From a virus (Duplodnaviria > Heunggongvirae > Uroviricota > Caudoviricetes), in the IMG/VR virus record IMGVR_UViG_2563366824_000008: a stretch of DNA of 41,432 nt, one strand, 5' to 3'. The position numbers were made by a program, and so were the translations under genes. The notes below the pieces were generated by a model. That model was not told the DNA's origin, did no database searches, and saw nothing but the letters and a program-made list of their open reading frames with translations. This document shows, piece by piece, positions 30,814 to 35,641 of this stretch. Position 1 is the first letter of the stretch. Every line of letters starts with the position of its first letter.

Positions 30814-31103
30814 CTGGTTGTCTCCCTTGCAGGGCTTTCGAATGTATCAAACTCAAACAACTTAACCACGTCATCAAACAGGACATAATCGCCATCAGGA
30901 TCTTCAGTCATGTCAGCGCCACAATCCTGACCGAACGAGTCACAACCATCCATATCAAGCTCGTATCGCTTCAGGTTTGCGATATTTGATAAATTCAGCG
31001 CCAGTACAGCCAGGTCATAAACCTCTTCGGCAGTGACATCGCTGTTCAGTCCCATTTCATGGCGATATATGATTTTTTCTACTCGTTGTTTTGTGATTGT
31101 CAT
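30801..31103 (-). CDS. small acidic hypothetical protein
   Basis: 100 aa; strongly acidic C-terminal half; ATGA overlap with the upstream gene. Confidence 0.45.
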   Translation of the reverse strand: MTITKQRVEKIIYRHEMGLNSDVTAEEVYDLAVLALNLSNIANLKRYELDMDGCDSFGQDCGADMTEDPDGDYVLFDDVVKLFEFDTFESPARETTSEQD

Positions 31104-31573
31104 TTTTGCTCGCCTCCCTGTTCTTCCAGAAAAATACGCATAGCCTCAAGCATCTCTTCGGTGTCATACGGTGACAACTTGTCACGCAGGATGTGTTCAA
31201 TGCTGTTAATGAACTTGCGGATTGCTTTGCGTTCAATTTCAGCCAGGAAAGCATCAGTGGCTGGAATGGGCTTTTGTGGTGATATAGCAATGCGAATTGT
31301 CTCAATGTCTGGATCTGTTTCCGCTGCTGGCACCTTGATATAACCCATCTGCACCCCATTCATGATGAACCTGCGACGGTCATCACATATCGCCTTTAGC
31401 CCCGCATTCTCAGCCGCCAGAGCATTAGCACGCACCAGTTGCACTTCCAGTTGCGTTGCCAAATCGCTGATCAGCTTTGCCACACTGCGCATATCAACGG
31501 CACCACATTCTGCTTTCAGTTCCGAAGCCATCTCATGCCCGGCGGCAACTAACCCTTTGATATTACTTTCCAT
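31100..31573 (-). CDS. hypothetical early protein
   Basis: 157-aa ORF; 4-nt overlap with the downstream gene. Confidence 0.45.
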   Translation of the reverse strand: MESNIKGLVAAGHEMASELKAECGAVDMRSVAKLISDLATQLEVQLVRANALAAENAGLKAICDDRRRFIMNGVQMGYIKVPAAETDPDIETIRIAISPQKPIPATDAFLAEIERKAIRKFINSIEHILRDKLSPYDTEEMLEAMRIFLEEQGGEQK

Positions 31574-31634
31574 CTTTACCCTCGCTTATCCACATAACTT
31601 ATTGATTACATTGATAACTAAAAAGATCGTCGAT

Positions 31635-31982
31635 TCAGAACTCTTCGATGTTCCAGCCGCCACCTGCTTTCTTTGGTTTAACCGTTACCCCGATGATTCG
31701 GAACGGATACTGATCTGCGGCTACTTTGGTTTTCACCCTGGCGTCGTCGGTCCAGAATCCCCCTTTCACTTCGTGCAGTTCCATCTCTCCGGTGGCGAGC
31801 ATCACAGCGAAATCGGGCGTATAGAACGTGTTGTCAGCTAACCGCAGCTTGATACCCTCGAATCGATACCAGGCGATTTCCCCTGCACGTTTACGCTGCT
31901 CAAGGTGCTGGCAATACGCAGATTCTGTTTTGTTCATCTGGCCTGTTTTGAGTCGACCAAGAGCCTGTATCTGTTTTCTCAT
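31635..31982 (-). CDS. phage protein of unknown function, possibly nuclease-like
   Basis: 115 aa; segment FYTPDFAV...ELHEVKGG suggests a PD-(D/E)XK-like fold (DUF1064-like, from memory); operator overlaps its RBS. Confidence 0.45.
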   Translation of the reverse strand: MRKQIQALGRLKTGQMNKTESAYCQHLEQRKRAGEIAWYRFEGIKLRLADNTFYTPDFAVMLATGEMELHEVKGGFWTDDARVKTKVAADQYPFRIIGVTVKPKKAGGGWNIEEF

Positions 31983-31985
31983 GAT

Positions 31986-32062
31986 TTACCTCTAAGGTAA
32001 TTAAAAACCACATAAGACACGAAATCAATAGAGTTTAGAATATTTTGTTACCTTATAGGTAA
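31986..32062. promoter_or_regulatory. two candidate repressor operators between P-like and downstream genes
   Basis: TTACCTCTAAGGTAA (31986..32000) and TTACCTTATAGGTAA (32048..32062). Confidence 0.5.
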
Positions 32063-32099
32063 TTGTTGAGGCGTAAAAAAATGCGCTATCGCGCTGGTA

Positions 32100-32900
32100 T
32101 TACTTGATAAATCCTGCCGCCTTTCCCCGCCTGTATTCCTCCATCAGCCACTGCGCCGGTGTTATTCCCCCGAGGGTGGCGGCGTTAGGCATGCACCCGA
32201 AACTTCGCCCTGGTGGATGGTAAACGTCTCTCCCTGTGTCCGGAGGTGTACTCATGGGCTCTGGCTTTGCCTGTATGCTGATCACCGGATCGGGTATCTG
32301 CTGTCCGGAAGCCACCTTTTTCGCCCAATCATCGAGCAACCTGCGCGCGTGTTTCTCAACCTCAATCTCGCTAAGCTGGCGCTGATACATTGCACGGCGG
32401 GTATCACATACGACCCAGTACATAACCGGATGCCGCCACGGGAATCTTTCGGGACCACCAGGATATAAACTTTTTTCCTTGCTGTACCGGTGAAACTCCG
32501 CCATCACATCGTCAATGGTGACGCCAAGAACCATCTTGCTGTCTTTGCACCACTTGATGAATTGCCCTGGCGACGGCCAGAACGGAGATTCACTGGCGCG
32601 GGCGTGGCGCATACCAGCAGAAACCTGTTCACGGGTTCGGATCCCCCCTTCGGCAAACGCAGCAATCCACTGCTGTTTTGCAGCGACTTCCTGCTCTGGC
32701 GTCTTCAGGTTGGTTACCACTGCCGCCGGAAACAGTTGTTTCAGCTGTTTGAAAAGGGCATCAACAAGCCTCTCTGCTGACATGTTCACCACATTGTCAT
32801 TGTTGACGTACTGATGCTCATAACCTGACATGCGAGAAAGGGCTTCTCCGTCACGGTTTTGTATCGCGGTAAAAACGTTGTTCACAAGAAATCCTCCCAT
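32100..32900 (-). CDS. replication protein P-like (DnaB helicase loader)
   Basis: 266 aa; segment QQWIAAFAEGGIRTREQVSAGMRHAR...PFWPSPGQFIKWC aligns with lambda P as I recall it. Confidence 0.7.
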   Translation of the reverse strand: MGGFLVNNVFTAIQNRDGEALSRMSGYEHQYVNNDNVVNMSAERLVDALFKQLKQLFPAAVVTNLKTPEQEVAAKQQWIAAFAEGGIRTREQVSAGMRHARASESPFWPSPGQFIKWCKDSKMVLGVTIDDVMAEFHRYSKEKSLYPGGPERFPWRHPVMYWVVCDTRRAMYQRQLSEIEVEKHARRLLDDWAKKVASGQQIPDPVISIQAKPEPMSTPPDTGRDVYHPPGRSFGCMPNAATLGGITPAQWLMEEYRRGKAAGFIK

Positions 32901-33697
32901 GCTTCAGGGCTGTTCCAGTGCGGAACGTTGTTATCAGGTAATGTTGATTGCTTCTGTCTGCTAATCTGCAGCCGCCTTGCCAGCTTCTGCTCCCACTGTG
33001 CCTGATGGTATGCCTTACCCTCAGCCATCCAGTAAATTCTGAACTCTGCAAGTTCCTGTGCTGTTGGCAGACTGTCCAGGTAGATCCCCTGCAATGAGCT
33101 TTTCCGAAGAAAGTCATCTGATGGCTGCCATTGTTCATGCATGACAAATTTGCCTAATTGCCCTGGCCCACCAGGAGGAACAAAGTTATTCATCACGGCG
33201 TTGTTTGCGCCGGGGTCATGAGGCACAGAACCTCGGGTTTTTGTCCTGCTCTCCCTCTCTTGGTTAAATGACTGGTTATATGACTGGTTCTGGATCCCGT
33301 TTTTGGGATCATTCAACATCCCGTTTTTGGGATCATTCAACATCCCGTTTTTGGGTATATTCCCGTTTTCGGGAACATTACCGTTTTCGGGTTCATTGCT
33401 CCCTTTCCGGTTGCCTTTAATGTTCCCGTTTTTGGTTATATTAAGAGAGAAAACCCGCACTCTTTTCGTCGCTCCCTTTCTCTCTCCGGTATCTGAAATA
33501 AGCCCCATTTTCATGAGCGATATAAGTCCGGCCTGCACGGTTTTTTTATTCAGGCAAGTGTCTTTAACGAGGCGTTCTATGCTGGGGTAGCAGAGGTTAT
33601 ATTCATCGGCTCTGTCAGCCATCGAGAGCAGTATGAGCTTTAATGATGAGCTACCTGGATCTGTCTCCCAGGCCCAATCTGTTGCATGTCTGCTCAT
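32882..33697 (-). CDS. replication initiator O-like protein with in-gene origin iterons
   Basis: 271 aa; N-terminal winged-helix-like domain; central repetitive linker (PKNGMLND x2 and related) encoded by DNA direct repeats; C-terminal domain upstream of the P-like gene. Confidence 0.65.
   Translation of the reverse strand: MSRHATDWAWETDPGSSSLKLILLSMADRADEYNLCYPSIERLVKDTCLNKKTVQAGLISLMKMGLISDTGERKGATKRVRVFSLNITKNGNIKGNRKGSNEPENGNVPENGNIPKNGMLNDPKNGMLNDPKNGIQNQSYNQSFNQERESRTKTRGSVPHDPGANNAVMNNFVPPGGPGQLGKFVMHEQWQPSDDFLRKSSLQGIYLDSLPTAQELAEFRIYWMAEGKAYHQAQWEQKLARRLQISRQKQSTLPDNNVPHWNSPEAWEDFL
33294..33445. repeat. iteron array (candidate origin of replication)
   Basis: Two perfect 24-bp units ATCCCGTTTTTGGGATCATTCAAC (33294..33317, 33318..33341) followed by 3-4 degenerate CCCGTTTT(T/C)GGG-containing units. 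Confidence 0.6.
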
Positions 33698-33712
33698 GAT
33701 TAATCTCCGCTA

Positions 33713-33949
33713 TCAGCTTGAATGTTGTGGGGAGGAATTAATCATGATCTGCTTAATCTCTGCCCTGATACGACGGTTTGATTCCATGGTGCACTCAACA
33801 CAGTGTCCGTTGTAAACCCAGCGTTCACTGTCATGTCCGTGCTTACATGGTTTTCCGGTGTAGTAGCGTTTAAGTCCGCGCTTTGCGGCATCAATACGTG
33901 TAATGATTTCCATGGTAAGCCCTGTTATTAGTATTGGGATTACGGTCAT
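33713..33949 (-). CDS. small zinc-ribbon protein
   Basis: ORF 33713..34003 trimmed to an internal Met because the annotated start overlaps an operator-like site; CKHGH...CVEC cysteine/histidine cluster; exact start uncertain. Confidence 0.4.
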   Translation of the reverse strand: MTVIPILITGLTMEIITRIDAAKRGLKRYYTGKPCKHGHDSERWVYNGHCVECTMESNRRIRAEIKQIMINSSPQHSS

Positions 33950-34014
33950 TTTGTGCTGACACAAAAAAAAGATCAACCACATTTGGTTTTTTATTACCCT
34001 CAAGGTGCGAATAG

Positions 34015-34042
34015 ATATGAAAAGACCGCCGGATGGCGGTCT
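34015..34042 (-). terminator. weak rho-independent terminator after the cro-like gene
   Basis: Minus strand: AGACCGCC-atcc-GGCGGTCT then TTTTC. Confidence 0.4.
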
Positions 34043-34063
34043 ACAGAGGGTTGTGGCTGGATA

Positions 34064-34294
34064 TCATGAGTAGAAGAAGTATGCCAGTTCTGCTTTTGAG
34101 CGCAGCCATTGTCTTGATTTACAGGCTTTAAAAAGCCCATTCATCAATACCTTACCTGGCATTTTGCGCTTACCTGTTAAGTGAGTCTGGATATAGTGAC
34201 TCGTCGTTCCGGCTTCCTGTGCGAAGGCTTCACGCTCATCCGGAGTAAGTGCAAGCCAGTGCTTTTTGAAATCGAAATGTCCGTTATCGCTCAT
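34064..34294 (-). CDS. Cro/cII-like helix-turn-helix regulator
   Basis: 76 aa; HTH-like segment QEAGTTSHYIQTHLTGKR; first gene of the leftward early operon, divergent from the repressor. Confidence 0.55.
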   Translation of the reverse strand: MSDNGHFDFKKHWLALTPDEREAFAQEAGTTSHYIQTHLTGKRKMPGKVLMNGLFKACKSRQWLRSKAELAYFFYS

Positions 34295-34330
34295 AGCTAT
34301 TGCCTGATATTTATTTCAGATAATAAATAT

Positions 34331-34393
34331 TCACCTATAAGGTAACAAAAATCAAGAATAGTTACCCATGAGGTGCATTTACCTGTTGGGTAA
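34331..34393. promoter_or_regulatory. immunity-region operator cluster (three sites) with divergent promoters
   Basis: TCACCTATAAGGTAA (34331..34345), TTACCCATGAGGTGC (34362..34376), TTACCTGTTGGGTAA (34379..34393) in the 154-bp gap between divergent regulator genes. Confidence 0.6.
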
Positions 34394-34448
34394 TATTGCT
34401 TTAAATTGAATCATCTTCTGATTCAGATATGAGGCGATTTTCCAGAAA

Positions 34449-35033
34449 ATGAAAAGTATCCAGGACGTCCGCAGGCAAAATCTCAACGACTTGATCGACC
34501 GTGAATTCAATGGTGTTCAGACGCGGATGGCAGAAAAACTTGGAACTCAGGCAAATCTGGTAAACCGCTGGGCTCTTGGCAAGAAGGTTATCGGCGACCA
34601 GGTTGCGCGAAAAATTGAAGCTGCCGCCAATAAACCCCGTAACTGGCTTGATATCGATCGCTCGCTTTCTCAGGAAGGTTTTCAGCCTGTCGGCCCAAGC
34701 GACATTGGTCAGCTGGCGGCTCACAACCTGGAACGCTGGATGAGCGAAAGCCGCGACCTTTCAACACAGGGAAAACTTCACCGCGCATCCGGCGTCGCCC
34801 AGGTGACAATCAGCCGCCTGTTAAACAATGAGGTCAGCGTTTCCATTTCCACCCTGGAGAATGTTGCATCCGCATTCGGGCGTCACGGCTATGAATTACT
34901 GATTCACCCGCACGACCCTGCGACTATCAACTATGACCGCTCGCGCTACGCATTGTTACCCGAAACAGAGAAGGCAAAGATCGAAAGTTACATTGAATTT
35001 GTCATCAGCCAGAACGAAAAAAACAAACAATAA
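34449..35033 (+). CDS. prophage repressor candidate with two HTH domains and no autocleavage domain
   Basis: 194 aa; two XRE-like HTH segments (QTRMAEKLGTQANLVNRW and HRASGVAQVTISRLLNN); no LexA-like Ala-Gly / Ser-Lys cleavage module seen; followed by its own terminator. Confidence 0.6.
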   Translation: MKSIQDVRRQNLNDLIDREFNGVQTRMAEKLGTQANLVNRWALGKKVIGDQVARKIEAAANKPRNWLDIDRSLSQEGFQPVGPSDIGQLAAHNLERWMSESRDLSTQGKLHRASGVAQVTISRLLNNEVSVSISTLENVASAFGRHGYELLIHPHDPATINYDRSRYALLPETEKAKIESYIEFVISQNEKNKQ

Positions 35034-35053
35034 AATCATATTTTTCAGTAAGT

Positions 35054-35078
35054 AAGCCGCCTCATGGCGGCTTTTTTA
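35054..35078 (+). terminator. rho-independent terminator after the repressor gene
   Basis: AAGCCGCC-tcat-GGCGGCTT followed by TTTTATT. Confidence 0.65.
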
Positions 35079-35090
35079 TTGCCAGCAAGA

Positions 35091-35167
35091 TTACCTTATG
35101 GGTAATTTTTTTAACTCATATCTATTGACATCAAACCAGATACGCATAATCATTACCTCAACGGTAA
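35091..35167 (+). promoter_or_regulatory. rightward early promoter flanked by two operators (oL/pL analogue)
   Basis: TTACCTTATGGGTAA (35091..35105), TTGACA (35125..35130), CATAAT (35145..35150), TTACCTCAACGGTAA (35153..35167). Confidence 0.55.
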
Positions 35168-35186
35168 CAGACCGAGGTAACAAATT

Positions 35187-35339
35187 ATGCAGTGGAAAAT
35201 CATCAACGGTTGGTACTGCGTTACTGCATGCGGATTCATGAGCTGGAAGTTCCGCACCTTACAGGAAGGCATTAAGTGGGCTTTCGTCAGCAAAGAAGCT
35301 CGCGATGTGGCCAACGATAACGAGATATGGGAGGGCTGA
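35187..35339 (+). CDS. small hypothetical protein, not in the ORF track
   Basis: 50-aa ORF translated by hand; RBS GAGGT 7 nt upstream; first gene after the rightward promoter. Confidence 0.4.
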   Translation: MQWKIINGWYCVTACGFMSWKFRTLQEGIKWAFVSKEARDVANDNEIWEG

Positions 35340-35341
35340 TA

Positions 35342-35641
35342 ATGAACGTTAATCAGCAGAAAAATCTTCAAAAAATCATGCTGGCATTCGACAAGGACTA
35401 CCGCCTGTCAGAACAGATATATGACCGACAAGTTGAACTGATTGAGAGCATCCGACTTCATCAACTGTCCTCAACTTTCGACGTTGTAACAGGCAAAGGC
35501 GTTCGCCAGGAAGTACTGGAGGCTGCTAAAGACAGCCCTGAGTTCGAAGAACTGATGGATGCCTATCGGCGAGAGGCAATGGCAATTATCGCCCGCTGGG
35601 ATCTGGCGGATCAGCTTGATGGACAGAGGGACGCGGCATGA
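35342..35641 (+). CDS. hypothetical early protein
   Basis: Start set at ATG 35342 with RBS GGGAGGG (ORF 35327..35641); 99 aa. Confidence 0.5.
   Translation: MNVNQQKNLQKIMLAFDKDYRLSEQIYDRQVELIESIRLHQLSSTFDVVTGKGVRQEVLEAAKDSPEFEELMDAYRREAMAIIARWDLADQLDGQRDAA

Follow-up and report, generated by a model that had tools for sequence, protein, structure and literature searches.

Within the replication initiator gene of a phiV10-like phage lies a dense array of short direct repeats, and this locus raises the question of whether the repeats act as DNA, forming part of the phage replication origin, or serve only to encode a repetitive stretch of protein. The window, as we call the whole 41,432-bp stretch of DNA analyzed here, belongs to a temperate phiV10/epsilon15-like phage (Uetakevirus) of E. 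coli. Its initiator gene (32882 to 33697, minus strand; 816 nt, 271 amino acids) is 96.6 to 98.5% identical to the genes of phiV10, phiv142-3, EC.W1-9, and PAS61 and is present in 424 of 5,426 complete E. coli genomes. The phiV10 record annotates terminators here and calls the gene a "putative primosomal protein"; it annotates no origin at the initiator locus.

The array consists of six iteron copies, two perfect and four degenerate, between positions 33295 and 33437 on the minus strand. Read in the sense of the gene, the iteron core is TCCCAAAAACGGGA, a dyad-symmetric sequence with the pattern TCCC-N6-GGGA, and in the perfect copies the symmetry extends to a 16-bp dyad, ATCCC-AAAAAC-GGGAT. 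A repeat search found six copies of ATCCCGTTTTTGGGATCATTCAAC in register, starting at 33294, 33318, 33342, 33360, 33378, and 33423 and thus spaced by 24, 24, 18, 18, and 45 bp. Tandem Repeats Finder reported a period-24 repeat at 33294 to 33355 (2.6 copies, 100% matches, score 124) and a period-18 repeat at 33343 to 33397 (3.1 copies, 83% matches), confirming the two perfect 24-bp repeats, at 33294 to 33341, and the accompanying degenerate copies that a preliminary description of the locus had noted. In the direction of transcription, the array begins with a distal degenerate iteron (AACCAAAAACGGGA, 33424 to 33437), 45 bp from the next copy, and continues through a degenerate iteron and one more iteron in 18-bp units (ACCCGAAAACGGTA, 33379 to 33392; TCCCGAAAACGGGA, 33361 to 33374) and a further copy, ACCCAAAAACGGGA (33343 to 33356), to the two perfect iterons in 24-bp units (33319 to 33332 and 33295 to 33308), the last of which is nearest to a second class of repeats, the 12-mers described below. 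A possible relic of a seventh iteron at about 33402 to 33415 (AACCGGAAAGGGAG) carries too many mismatches to be counted. When the whole window was searched with TCCCAAAAACGGGA at up to 2 mismatches, all five matches fell within 33295 to 33437 on the minus strand; the chance expectation is 0.30 matches, and none of 100 shuffled sequences reached five.

Translation of the array gives ...NVPENGNIPKNGMLNDPKNGMLNDPKNGIQNQSYNQSFNQ... within the initiator (in a longer excerpt, ...EPENGNVPENGNIPKNGMLNDPKNGMLNDPKNGIQNQSYNQSFNQ...), in agreement with the PKNGMLND peptide repeat reported earlier. Every iteron in the window is read in a single frame, as P-K/E-N-G, and the window alone therefore cannot separate selection on the DNA from selection on the peptide.

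Several other features overlap the array. The 42 bp from 33293 to 33334 contain three GATC (Dam) sites, at 33293, 33307, and 33331. One marks the boundary with the 12-mers, and the others fall in spacer DNA of the perfect 24-bp units; arrays in other genera do not conserve them. In E. coli, the origin could come under methylation or SeqA control through these sites. An antisense ORF of 95 amino acids (33303 to 33590, plus strand; MGSFNIPFLGSFNIPFLG...) arises from the repeats; gene callers can pick it up, but the ORF is almost certainly spurious. The plus strand also shows terminator-like hits at 33304 to 33347; these are an artifact of pairing between neighboring iteron half-sites, the total number of such hits being not above chance, and an Rfam search of 31000 to 35500 returned no match.

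The domain structure of the initiator places the array precisely. Pfam identifies an HTH_36 domain at amino acids 18 to 67 (1.8e-10) and a DnaT DNA-binding domain at amino acids 184 to 252 (1.1e-15; coding sequence 32942 to 33148, minus strand), and the iterons encode approximately amino acids 88 to 135 between them, so that the array does occupy the linker-coding part of the gene, as first described. The N-terminal domain (amino acids 1 to 87; 33437 to 33697, minus strand) is the presumed iteron-binding module, and the DnaT-like domain is presumed to recruit a P-DnaB complex and/or to bind single-stranded DNA (ssDNA). The iteron-coded segment coincides with the gap-rich, length-variable portion of the family alignment, and we propose that the PKNG/PENG peptide is a tolerated interdomain linker. 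A single-sequence AlphaFold2 model of the initiator, with a mean pLDDT of 38, was unusable for claims about the domains or the linker.

Profile searches assign the protein to replication initiation. It matches phrog_1032, "replication initiation protein," from end to end (4e-108), and its N-terminal half also matches several "replication initiation O-like" PHROGs. The structure of the DnaT C-terminal domain (PDB 4OU6) matches amino acids 181 to 254 at 4e-20, with 6AEP and 9ZBT also at about 1e-20; the similarity to DnaT is limited to initiator amino acids 180 to 265 and DnaT residues of about 85 to 170. No full-length similarity to DnaT was found, and the DnaT N-terminal domain was unmatched. 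Pfam showed no Rep_3-type domain in the initiator at an E value of ≤0.01, and a PDB sequence search with the N-domain family or lambda O found no solved structure, winged-helix matches being weak (E > 0.07). Because the N-terminal half consists of HTH_36 and a repeat linker, and because the gene belongs to a phage replication module that includes a P loader, the protein is, judged by its sequence, an origin-binding initiator and not a restart primosome protein.

The loader gene (32100 to 32900, minus strand) lies immediately downstream and overlaps the initiator stop codon. Its product is of the lambda P type (Pfam Phage_lambda_P [PF06992], 1.5e-56) and matches phrog_109, "P-like helicase loader," at 5e-92. 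The start could be an ATG at 32900, with a 19-nt overlap, or a GTG at 32885, in a GTGA overlap with the stop; the latter, as annotated in phiV10, is probably the true start, and either suggests translational coupling of initiator and loader. Upstream of the initiator lie a small conserved ORF, a terminator-like hairpin (34042 to 34023), a cro-like gene, and a divergent repressor with two HTH motifs. A consensus scan found a promoter-like site (34320 to 34348, minus strand; 9 of 12 matches, in a scan whose number of hits was not above chance) upstream of the cro-like gene, a weak candidate for an early promoter whose transcripts cross the origin. The small ORF (33713 to 34003, minus strand; 96 amino acids) matches phrog_1081 only over amino acids 31 to 96, and phiV10 has a 201-bp gene at this position; the true start is therefore probably an internal ATG near 33913. 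Its product carries a Cys/His-rich motif (CKHGH...CVEC) and has a weak match to an endonuclease VII PHROG.

If the repeats are functional, they should be found in relatives, as the preliminary description had recommended checking; they are conserved, and their copy number varies. Alleles in E. coli genomes and phages measure 792, 810, 816, 828, 834, 840, 852, and 864 nt, and close-relative gene lengths overall range from 792 to 888 nt. The differences correspond to one to four copies of the 24-bp unit plus extra 18-bp units, and the frame is kept in all ten intact E. coli and phage alleles. For copy-number statistics, we used 78 complete ORFs from a scan of viral contigs, which come from near-identical phages only. 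These contain 5 to 9 recognizable iterons, and all 76 apparently full-length alleles among them are in frame; the architecture of the window (spacings of 45, 18, 18, 24, and 24 in transcriptional order) is the commonest, in 54 of the 78.

Substitutions are distributed unevenly along the gene. Among 42 distinct close alleles of 816 nt, a set that leaves out one divergent allele of the same length, none of the 48 sites in the two perfect 24-mers is variable. Variable third codon positions number 0 of 28 in the 24-mers and 12-mers together and make up 21% of those in the flanking N-domain coding sequence and 15% in that of the C-domain. The invariance of the perfect repeats fits a constraint on the DNA itself, to judge from these alleles, and homogenization between copies could contribute.

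Three records containing the gene should be noted. In Escherichia phage YDC107_2 (CP025713; locus L004, 2501 to 3316), the initiator reads out of frame; the expected frame contains 19 stops, and A6 replaces A5 in several iterons. The record splits the gene into small coding sequences and marks a "putative membrane protein" antisense to the array. The loss of frame probably reflects a homopolymer sequencing error or a decayed prophage. Escherichia phage BP9 (PP488543; locus L002), a 138-kb record classed as Vequintavirus, contains at its right end (132437 to 138228 of the record) a temperate early region like that of phiV10, with a repressor, a recE-like gene, the initiator, P, and ea22, and is possibly an assembly chimera with a prophage. 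An unannotated 115-kb record, PH444, also has the initiator gene.

Distant relatives link the array to one part of the protein. A tblastn search against phages returned some proteins that share only the N-terminal half of the initiator and others that share only the C-terminal half. All of those sharing the N-domain have CCCAAAAnnGGG-type arrays, which begin about 260 to 330 nt into the gene. They include the initiators of GF-2 (52% identity), Vibrio phage Her (45%), Acinetobacter phage AP22 (41%), and PPompW and Stx2a phages (36%) (full length); across amino acids 1 to 87, those of GF-2, Her, AP22, and PPompW are 46 to 57% identical. Their C-terminal parts differ: that of GF-2 aligns with lambda O, and a P gene comes next; Her has yet another C terminus, and the AP22 initiator gene is followed by a DnaB-like helicase. 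In SPN1S, Tyrion, and TL-2011b, which combine the DnaT-like C-domain with another N terminus, there was no motif copy at ≤3 mismatches and no repeat above background. In this sample the array travels with the N-domain through domain swaps, which fits binding by the N-domain.

Two of these phages deserve separate mention. The initiator of Edwardsiella phage GF-2 (NC_026611; locus L006, 2501 to 3343) is a natural chimera, with the N-domain, iterons, and 12/13-mers of the HTH_36 initiator family and a C-terminal half that aligns with lambda O. The DNA past its 12/13-mers (TCCGAGAATTCTGACGAATCCTCAGAC) nearly matches lambda to the right of the AT-rich tract, and the junction of the chimera lies just past the origin. 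Salmonella phage SPN1S (NC_016761; locus L016, 1030 to 2310), also a Uetakevirus, has the same DnaT-like C-domain with a different N terminus; its initiator gene lacks iterons, and DUF1064 rather than a P-like gene follows directly downstream. SPN1S must have an origin and a helicase-loading route other than those used by the phiV10-type phages in the same genus.

An alignment scan with the N-domain, taking one genome per species, yielded 80 loci from Enterobacterales, Vibrio, Pseudoalteromonas, Marinomonas, Acinetobacter, Wohlfahrtiimonas, Desulfovibrionaceae, Burkholderiaceae, Sphingomonadales, and other hosts. At 71 of them, we counted copies of the best 11-mer at ≤1 mismatch in the 400 nt past the N-domain. 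At least three copies were present at 60 of the 71 loci (median, 4); in three control regions from the same loci the median was 2, and at least three copies occurred at only 1 or 2 of the 71. The ORFs run through the array in all but a few cases. Spacings of 17, 22, 23, and 25 are found alongside 18 and 24, and as a result the copies within one ORF occupy two or three reading frames at 23 of 30 loci. Because mixed spacings place the repeat in several reading frames, selection acts on the DNA and not on the peptide. One DNA motif accordingly encodes different peptides: TQKRD/PKIG in GF-2, TQKRE/PKNG in PPompW, and DPKTE/PENG in Her. The family consensus of the iteron proximal to the 12-mers is (G/A)TCCC-AAAAA(C/T)-GGGA(C/T). 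Among 30 distinct sites, 28 keep the CC and GG unchanged and 22 have complementary outer pairs, A..T and G..C switching together. Such a palindromic site fits a dimeric winged-helix reader.

Past the last iteron lies a second repeat class, AACCAGTCATAT AACCAGTCATTT AACCAAG in gene sense (33259 to 33289, minus strand), which Tandem Repeats Finder reports as a period-12 repeat of 2.4 copies at 33261 to 33289. The preliminary description had placed the iteron array at 33260 to 33445; that interval does hold the iterons, and its leftmost part (33259 to 33293) consists of these 12-mers and not of degenerate iterons. The 12-mers, recognized here as a separate element conserved across the family just past the last iteron, fall in a local minimum of duplex stability (33252 to 33293). 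With 63% AT, this minimum is only moderate (93rd percentile of the window); the least stable DNA of the replication module is elsewhere, at about 34305 in the immunity intergenic region. Two or three tandem GAAYC-N6-9 units follow the last iteron at 61 of 74 family loci, compared with 1 of 74 in the control. They begin 2 to 3 nt past that iteron (a typical case is CAGAATCTATCAAAGAATCTACCAATAGAATCTAAAAATAAAAAA), are spaced mostly 12 + 13 or 13 + 12, so that they are read in different frames, and usually lead into an A-rich tract. These GAAYCnnnCA.. 12/13-mers occur past the final iteron of initiator genes in prophages of gamma-, beta-, alpha-, and deltaproteobacteria. In the window, a purine-rich tract on the sense strand (GAGAGGGAGAGCAGGACAAAAACC; 33235 to 33258, minus strand; purine fraction, 0.73 to 0.77) occupies the place of the relatives' A-rich tract and of the A-rich region of lambda, and may be part of the opening element.

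Because their position and order match those of the lambda AT-rich tract and of the 13-mers in the DNA unwinding elements (DUEs) of iteron plasmids, the 12-mers at 33259 to 33289 are candidates for an unwinding or single-strand-binding element, a reading to which we give slightly less than an even chance; a second protein-binding site is the alternative candidate. A broader suggestion, that the 12/13-mers are a sequence-specific ssDNA recognition element of a widespread and undescribed class of phage origins, comparable to DnaA-trios or to the Rep-bound 13-mers of plasmid DUEs, is more speculative, and we hold it to be rather doubtful at present.

Together, these results make it likely that phiV10/epsilon15-like phages replicate from an origin inside the initiator gene and that the array is where the initiator binds it; comparison with relatives and with known systems thus supports the earlier proposal of a probable phage origin. 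The anatomy of the locus, its conservation at the DNA level, the coinheritance with the N-domain, and the adjacent P loader come directly from sequence and comparison; the mechanism that we infer adds analogy to that anatomy. Initiator dimers would use their N-terminal HTH_36 domain to bind the six dyads (ATCCC-AAAAAC-GGGAT), whose A-tract centers would help to wrap the DNA into a complex resembling an O-some. The resulting stress would open the adjoining two and a half 12-mers (AACCAGTCAT..) and the purine-rich tract, downstream along transcription. The DnaT-like C-domain would then hold ssDNA and/or recruit the lambda P-like loader complexed with host DnaB. Early rightward-type transcription would cross the site and may activate the origin, as in lambda. 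Tolerance of the linker would let the copy number drift while the frame is kept.

One competing explanation is that the repeats are a low-complexity, slippage-prone PKNG linker with no function as DNA. All copies in the window do share a frame and read P-K/E-N-G, and copy number changes freely among close relatives, as slippage predicts. The frame sharing breaks down in the wider family, however, where most of the homologous loci compared (23 of 30) read the repeat in two or three frames and where the peptides of GF-2, PPompW, and Her differ while the DNA motif stays. Nor would any peptide requirement explain a palindromic unit, or the loss of the repeats whenever the N-domain is replaced though a linker remains. 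We therefore regard a purely peptide-level role for the repeats as very improbable.

Two further alternatives grant the repeats a function as DNA. The initiator might bind them for control (autoregulation, titration, handcuffing, or a transcription roadblock), with initiation elsewhere, for example, in the very AT-rich immunity intergenic DNA at about 34305. Iterons act in the copy-number control of plasmids, which counts in favor of this possibility, as does the location of the module's stability minimum at about 34305 and not beside the array. An origin elsewhere would nevertheless have no binding site, as there is no other copy of the motif in the 41 kb; the family-wide order of iterons, 12/13-mers, and A-rich tract is a complete origin layout; and the equivalent array in lambda is the origin (PMC7466680). 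On balance a role confined to control is unlikely. Less likely still, indeed the most remote of the explanations considered, is recognition of the repeats by another protein, in packaging, in partition, or as a host factor such as SeqA/Dam at the GATC sites. Three such sites within 42 bp would suit the last of these, yet GATC is not conserved in the arrays of other genera (e.g., GTCCCAACGTTGGGAC in Acinetobacter), the array strictly cosegregates with the DNA-binding domain encoded by the same gene, and it is embedded in the replication module rather than the packaging module.

This reading places the origin of phiV10-like prophages in the initiator gene found in the 424 E. coli genomes counted above, with similar arrays in relatives across many genera, and provides a defined fragment for phagemid or reporter-phage engineering. 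The array also accounts for differences in gene length that preserve the frame. The database names for this gene, "primosomal protein I" and "DnaT-like," are misleading: the likeness to E. coli DnaT (primosomal protein I) is found only in the C-terminal 70 to 85 residues of the window protein, in the ssDNA-binding domain. GF-2, Her, and AP22 form a natural domain-swap series in which origin recognition is coupled to different helicase-loading routes.

Among described systems, HTH_36 proteins are encoded in replication modules named "Eru" in non-lambdoid Stx phages, adjoining the immunity region (PMC8951638), and share their Pfam N-terminal motif and genomic place with the window initiator; the Eru paper describes neither iterons nor an origin (PMC8951638). 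In the literature searched, largely outside subscription journals, neither the window iteron nor an origin of phiV10 or epsilon15 is described, HTH_36 initiators are not reported to carry iterons, and no experiment on origin activity or binding was found for any member of the family. Iteron plasmids such as RK2, F, and R6K share with the window family the order of iterons, tandem 12/13-mers, and A-rich tract. Plasmid Rep is reported to bind the DUE 13-mers as ssDNA (PMC4081077), and by analogy the window initiator may retain a single strand once the element has opened. The two systems differ in that the plasmid origin lies outside the rep gene, whereas the window array lies inside the initiator gene, and the window 12/13-mer (GAAYCnnnCA..) is unrelated in sequence to the plasmid DUE 13-mers.

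The closest parallel is lambda, whose origin in the middle of O combines iterons with an AT-rich tract, with four iterons in lambda and six in Stx phages (PMC7466680). The comparison made in the preliminary description, that lambda carries its iterons inside O in the same way, stands: the lambda record has four at nt 349 to 433 of the 900-nt O gene, followed by P, and the window iterons lie at a comparable relative position, nt 261 to 403 of the 816-nt initiator gene. Both arrays consist of direct repeats with dyad symmetry and an A-tract center (lambda, TCCCTCAAAACGAGGGA; window, TCCCAAAAACGGGA) and are located between the coding sequences of a DNA-binding N-domain and a C-domain; in both, a purine- or A-rich stretch of lower stability, only moderately so in the window, lies past the array along transcription, and a gene for a P-family loader comes next. 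Lambda iterons share TCCC...AAAAC...GGGA with those of the window (PMC7466680) and are about 4 bp longer, lambda having four iterons of 18 to 19 bp and the window six sites of 14 to 16 bp. Lambda O is reported to contact the outer G residues, with bending at the center, and to bind AT-rich ssDNA (PMC7466680). As in the arrays of the distant relatives, the lambda iterons are read in different frames. The Stx phages 933W and P27 have six iterons, their number differs among related phages, and the extra distal iterons are bound more weakly (PMC7466680); the 5 to 9 copies among the window relatives, with degenerate distal ones, parallel this, although 933W and P27 are true lambda O/P homologues with lambda-type iterons and the window represents a different initiator family.

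Phage_rep_O (PF04492) matches lambda O at 5.7e-36 and was unmatched by the window protein and four relatives, which match HTH_36 only; the term "O-like" in the preliminary description thus suits the architecture and the PHROG name and does not extend to the Pfam family. An hhalign comparison of the N-domain with lambda O gave a probability of 8%, the aligned stretch being the topologically equivalent helix-wing just before the iteron-coded part, and by this measure the two are not detectably related at the sequence level. The window C-domain is DnaT-like and not lambda O-like, and the position of the lambda AT-rich tract is held in the window family by the conserved tandem 12/13-mer. The concept itself is unchanged, the principle of an origin within the initiator gene having been known from lambda for decades; if our reading of the 12/13-mers is true, the HTH_36 family would be a second, lambda-independent lineage of that arrangement.
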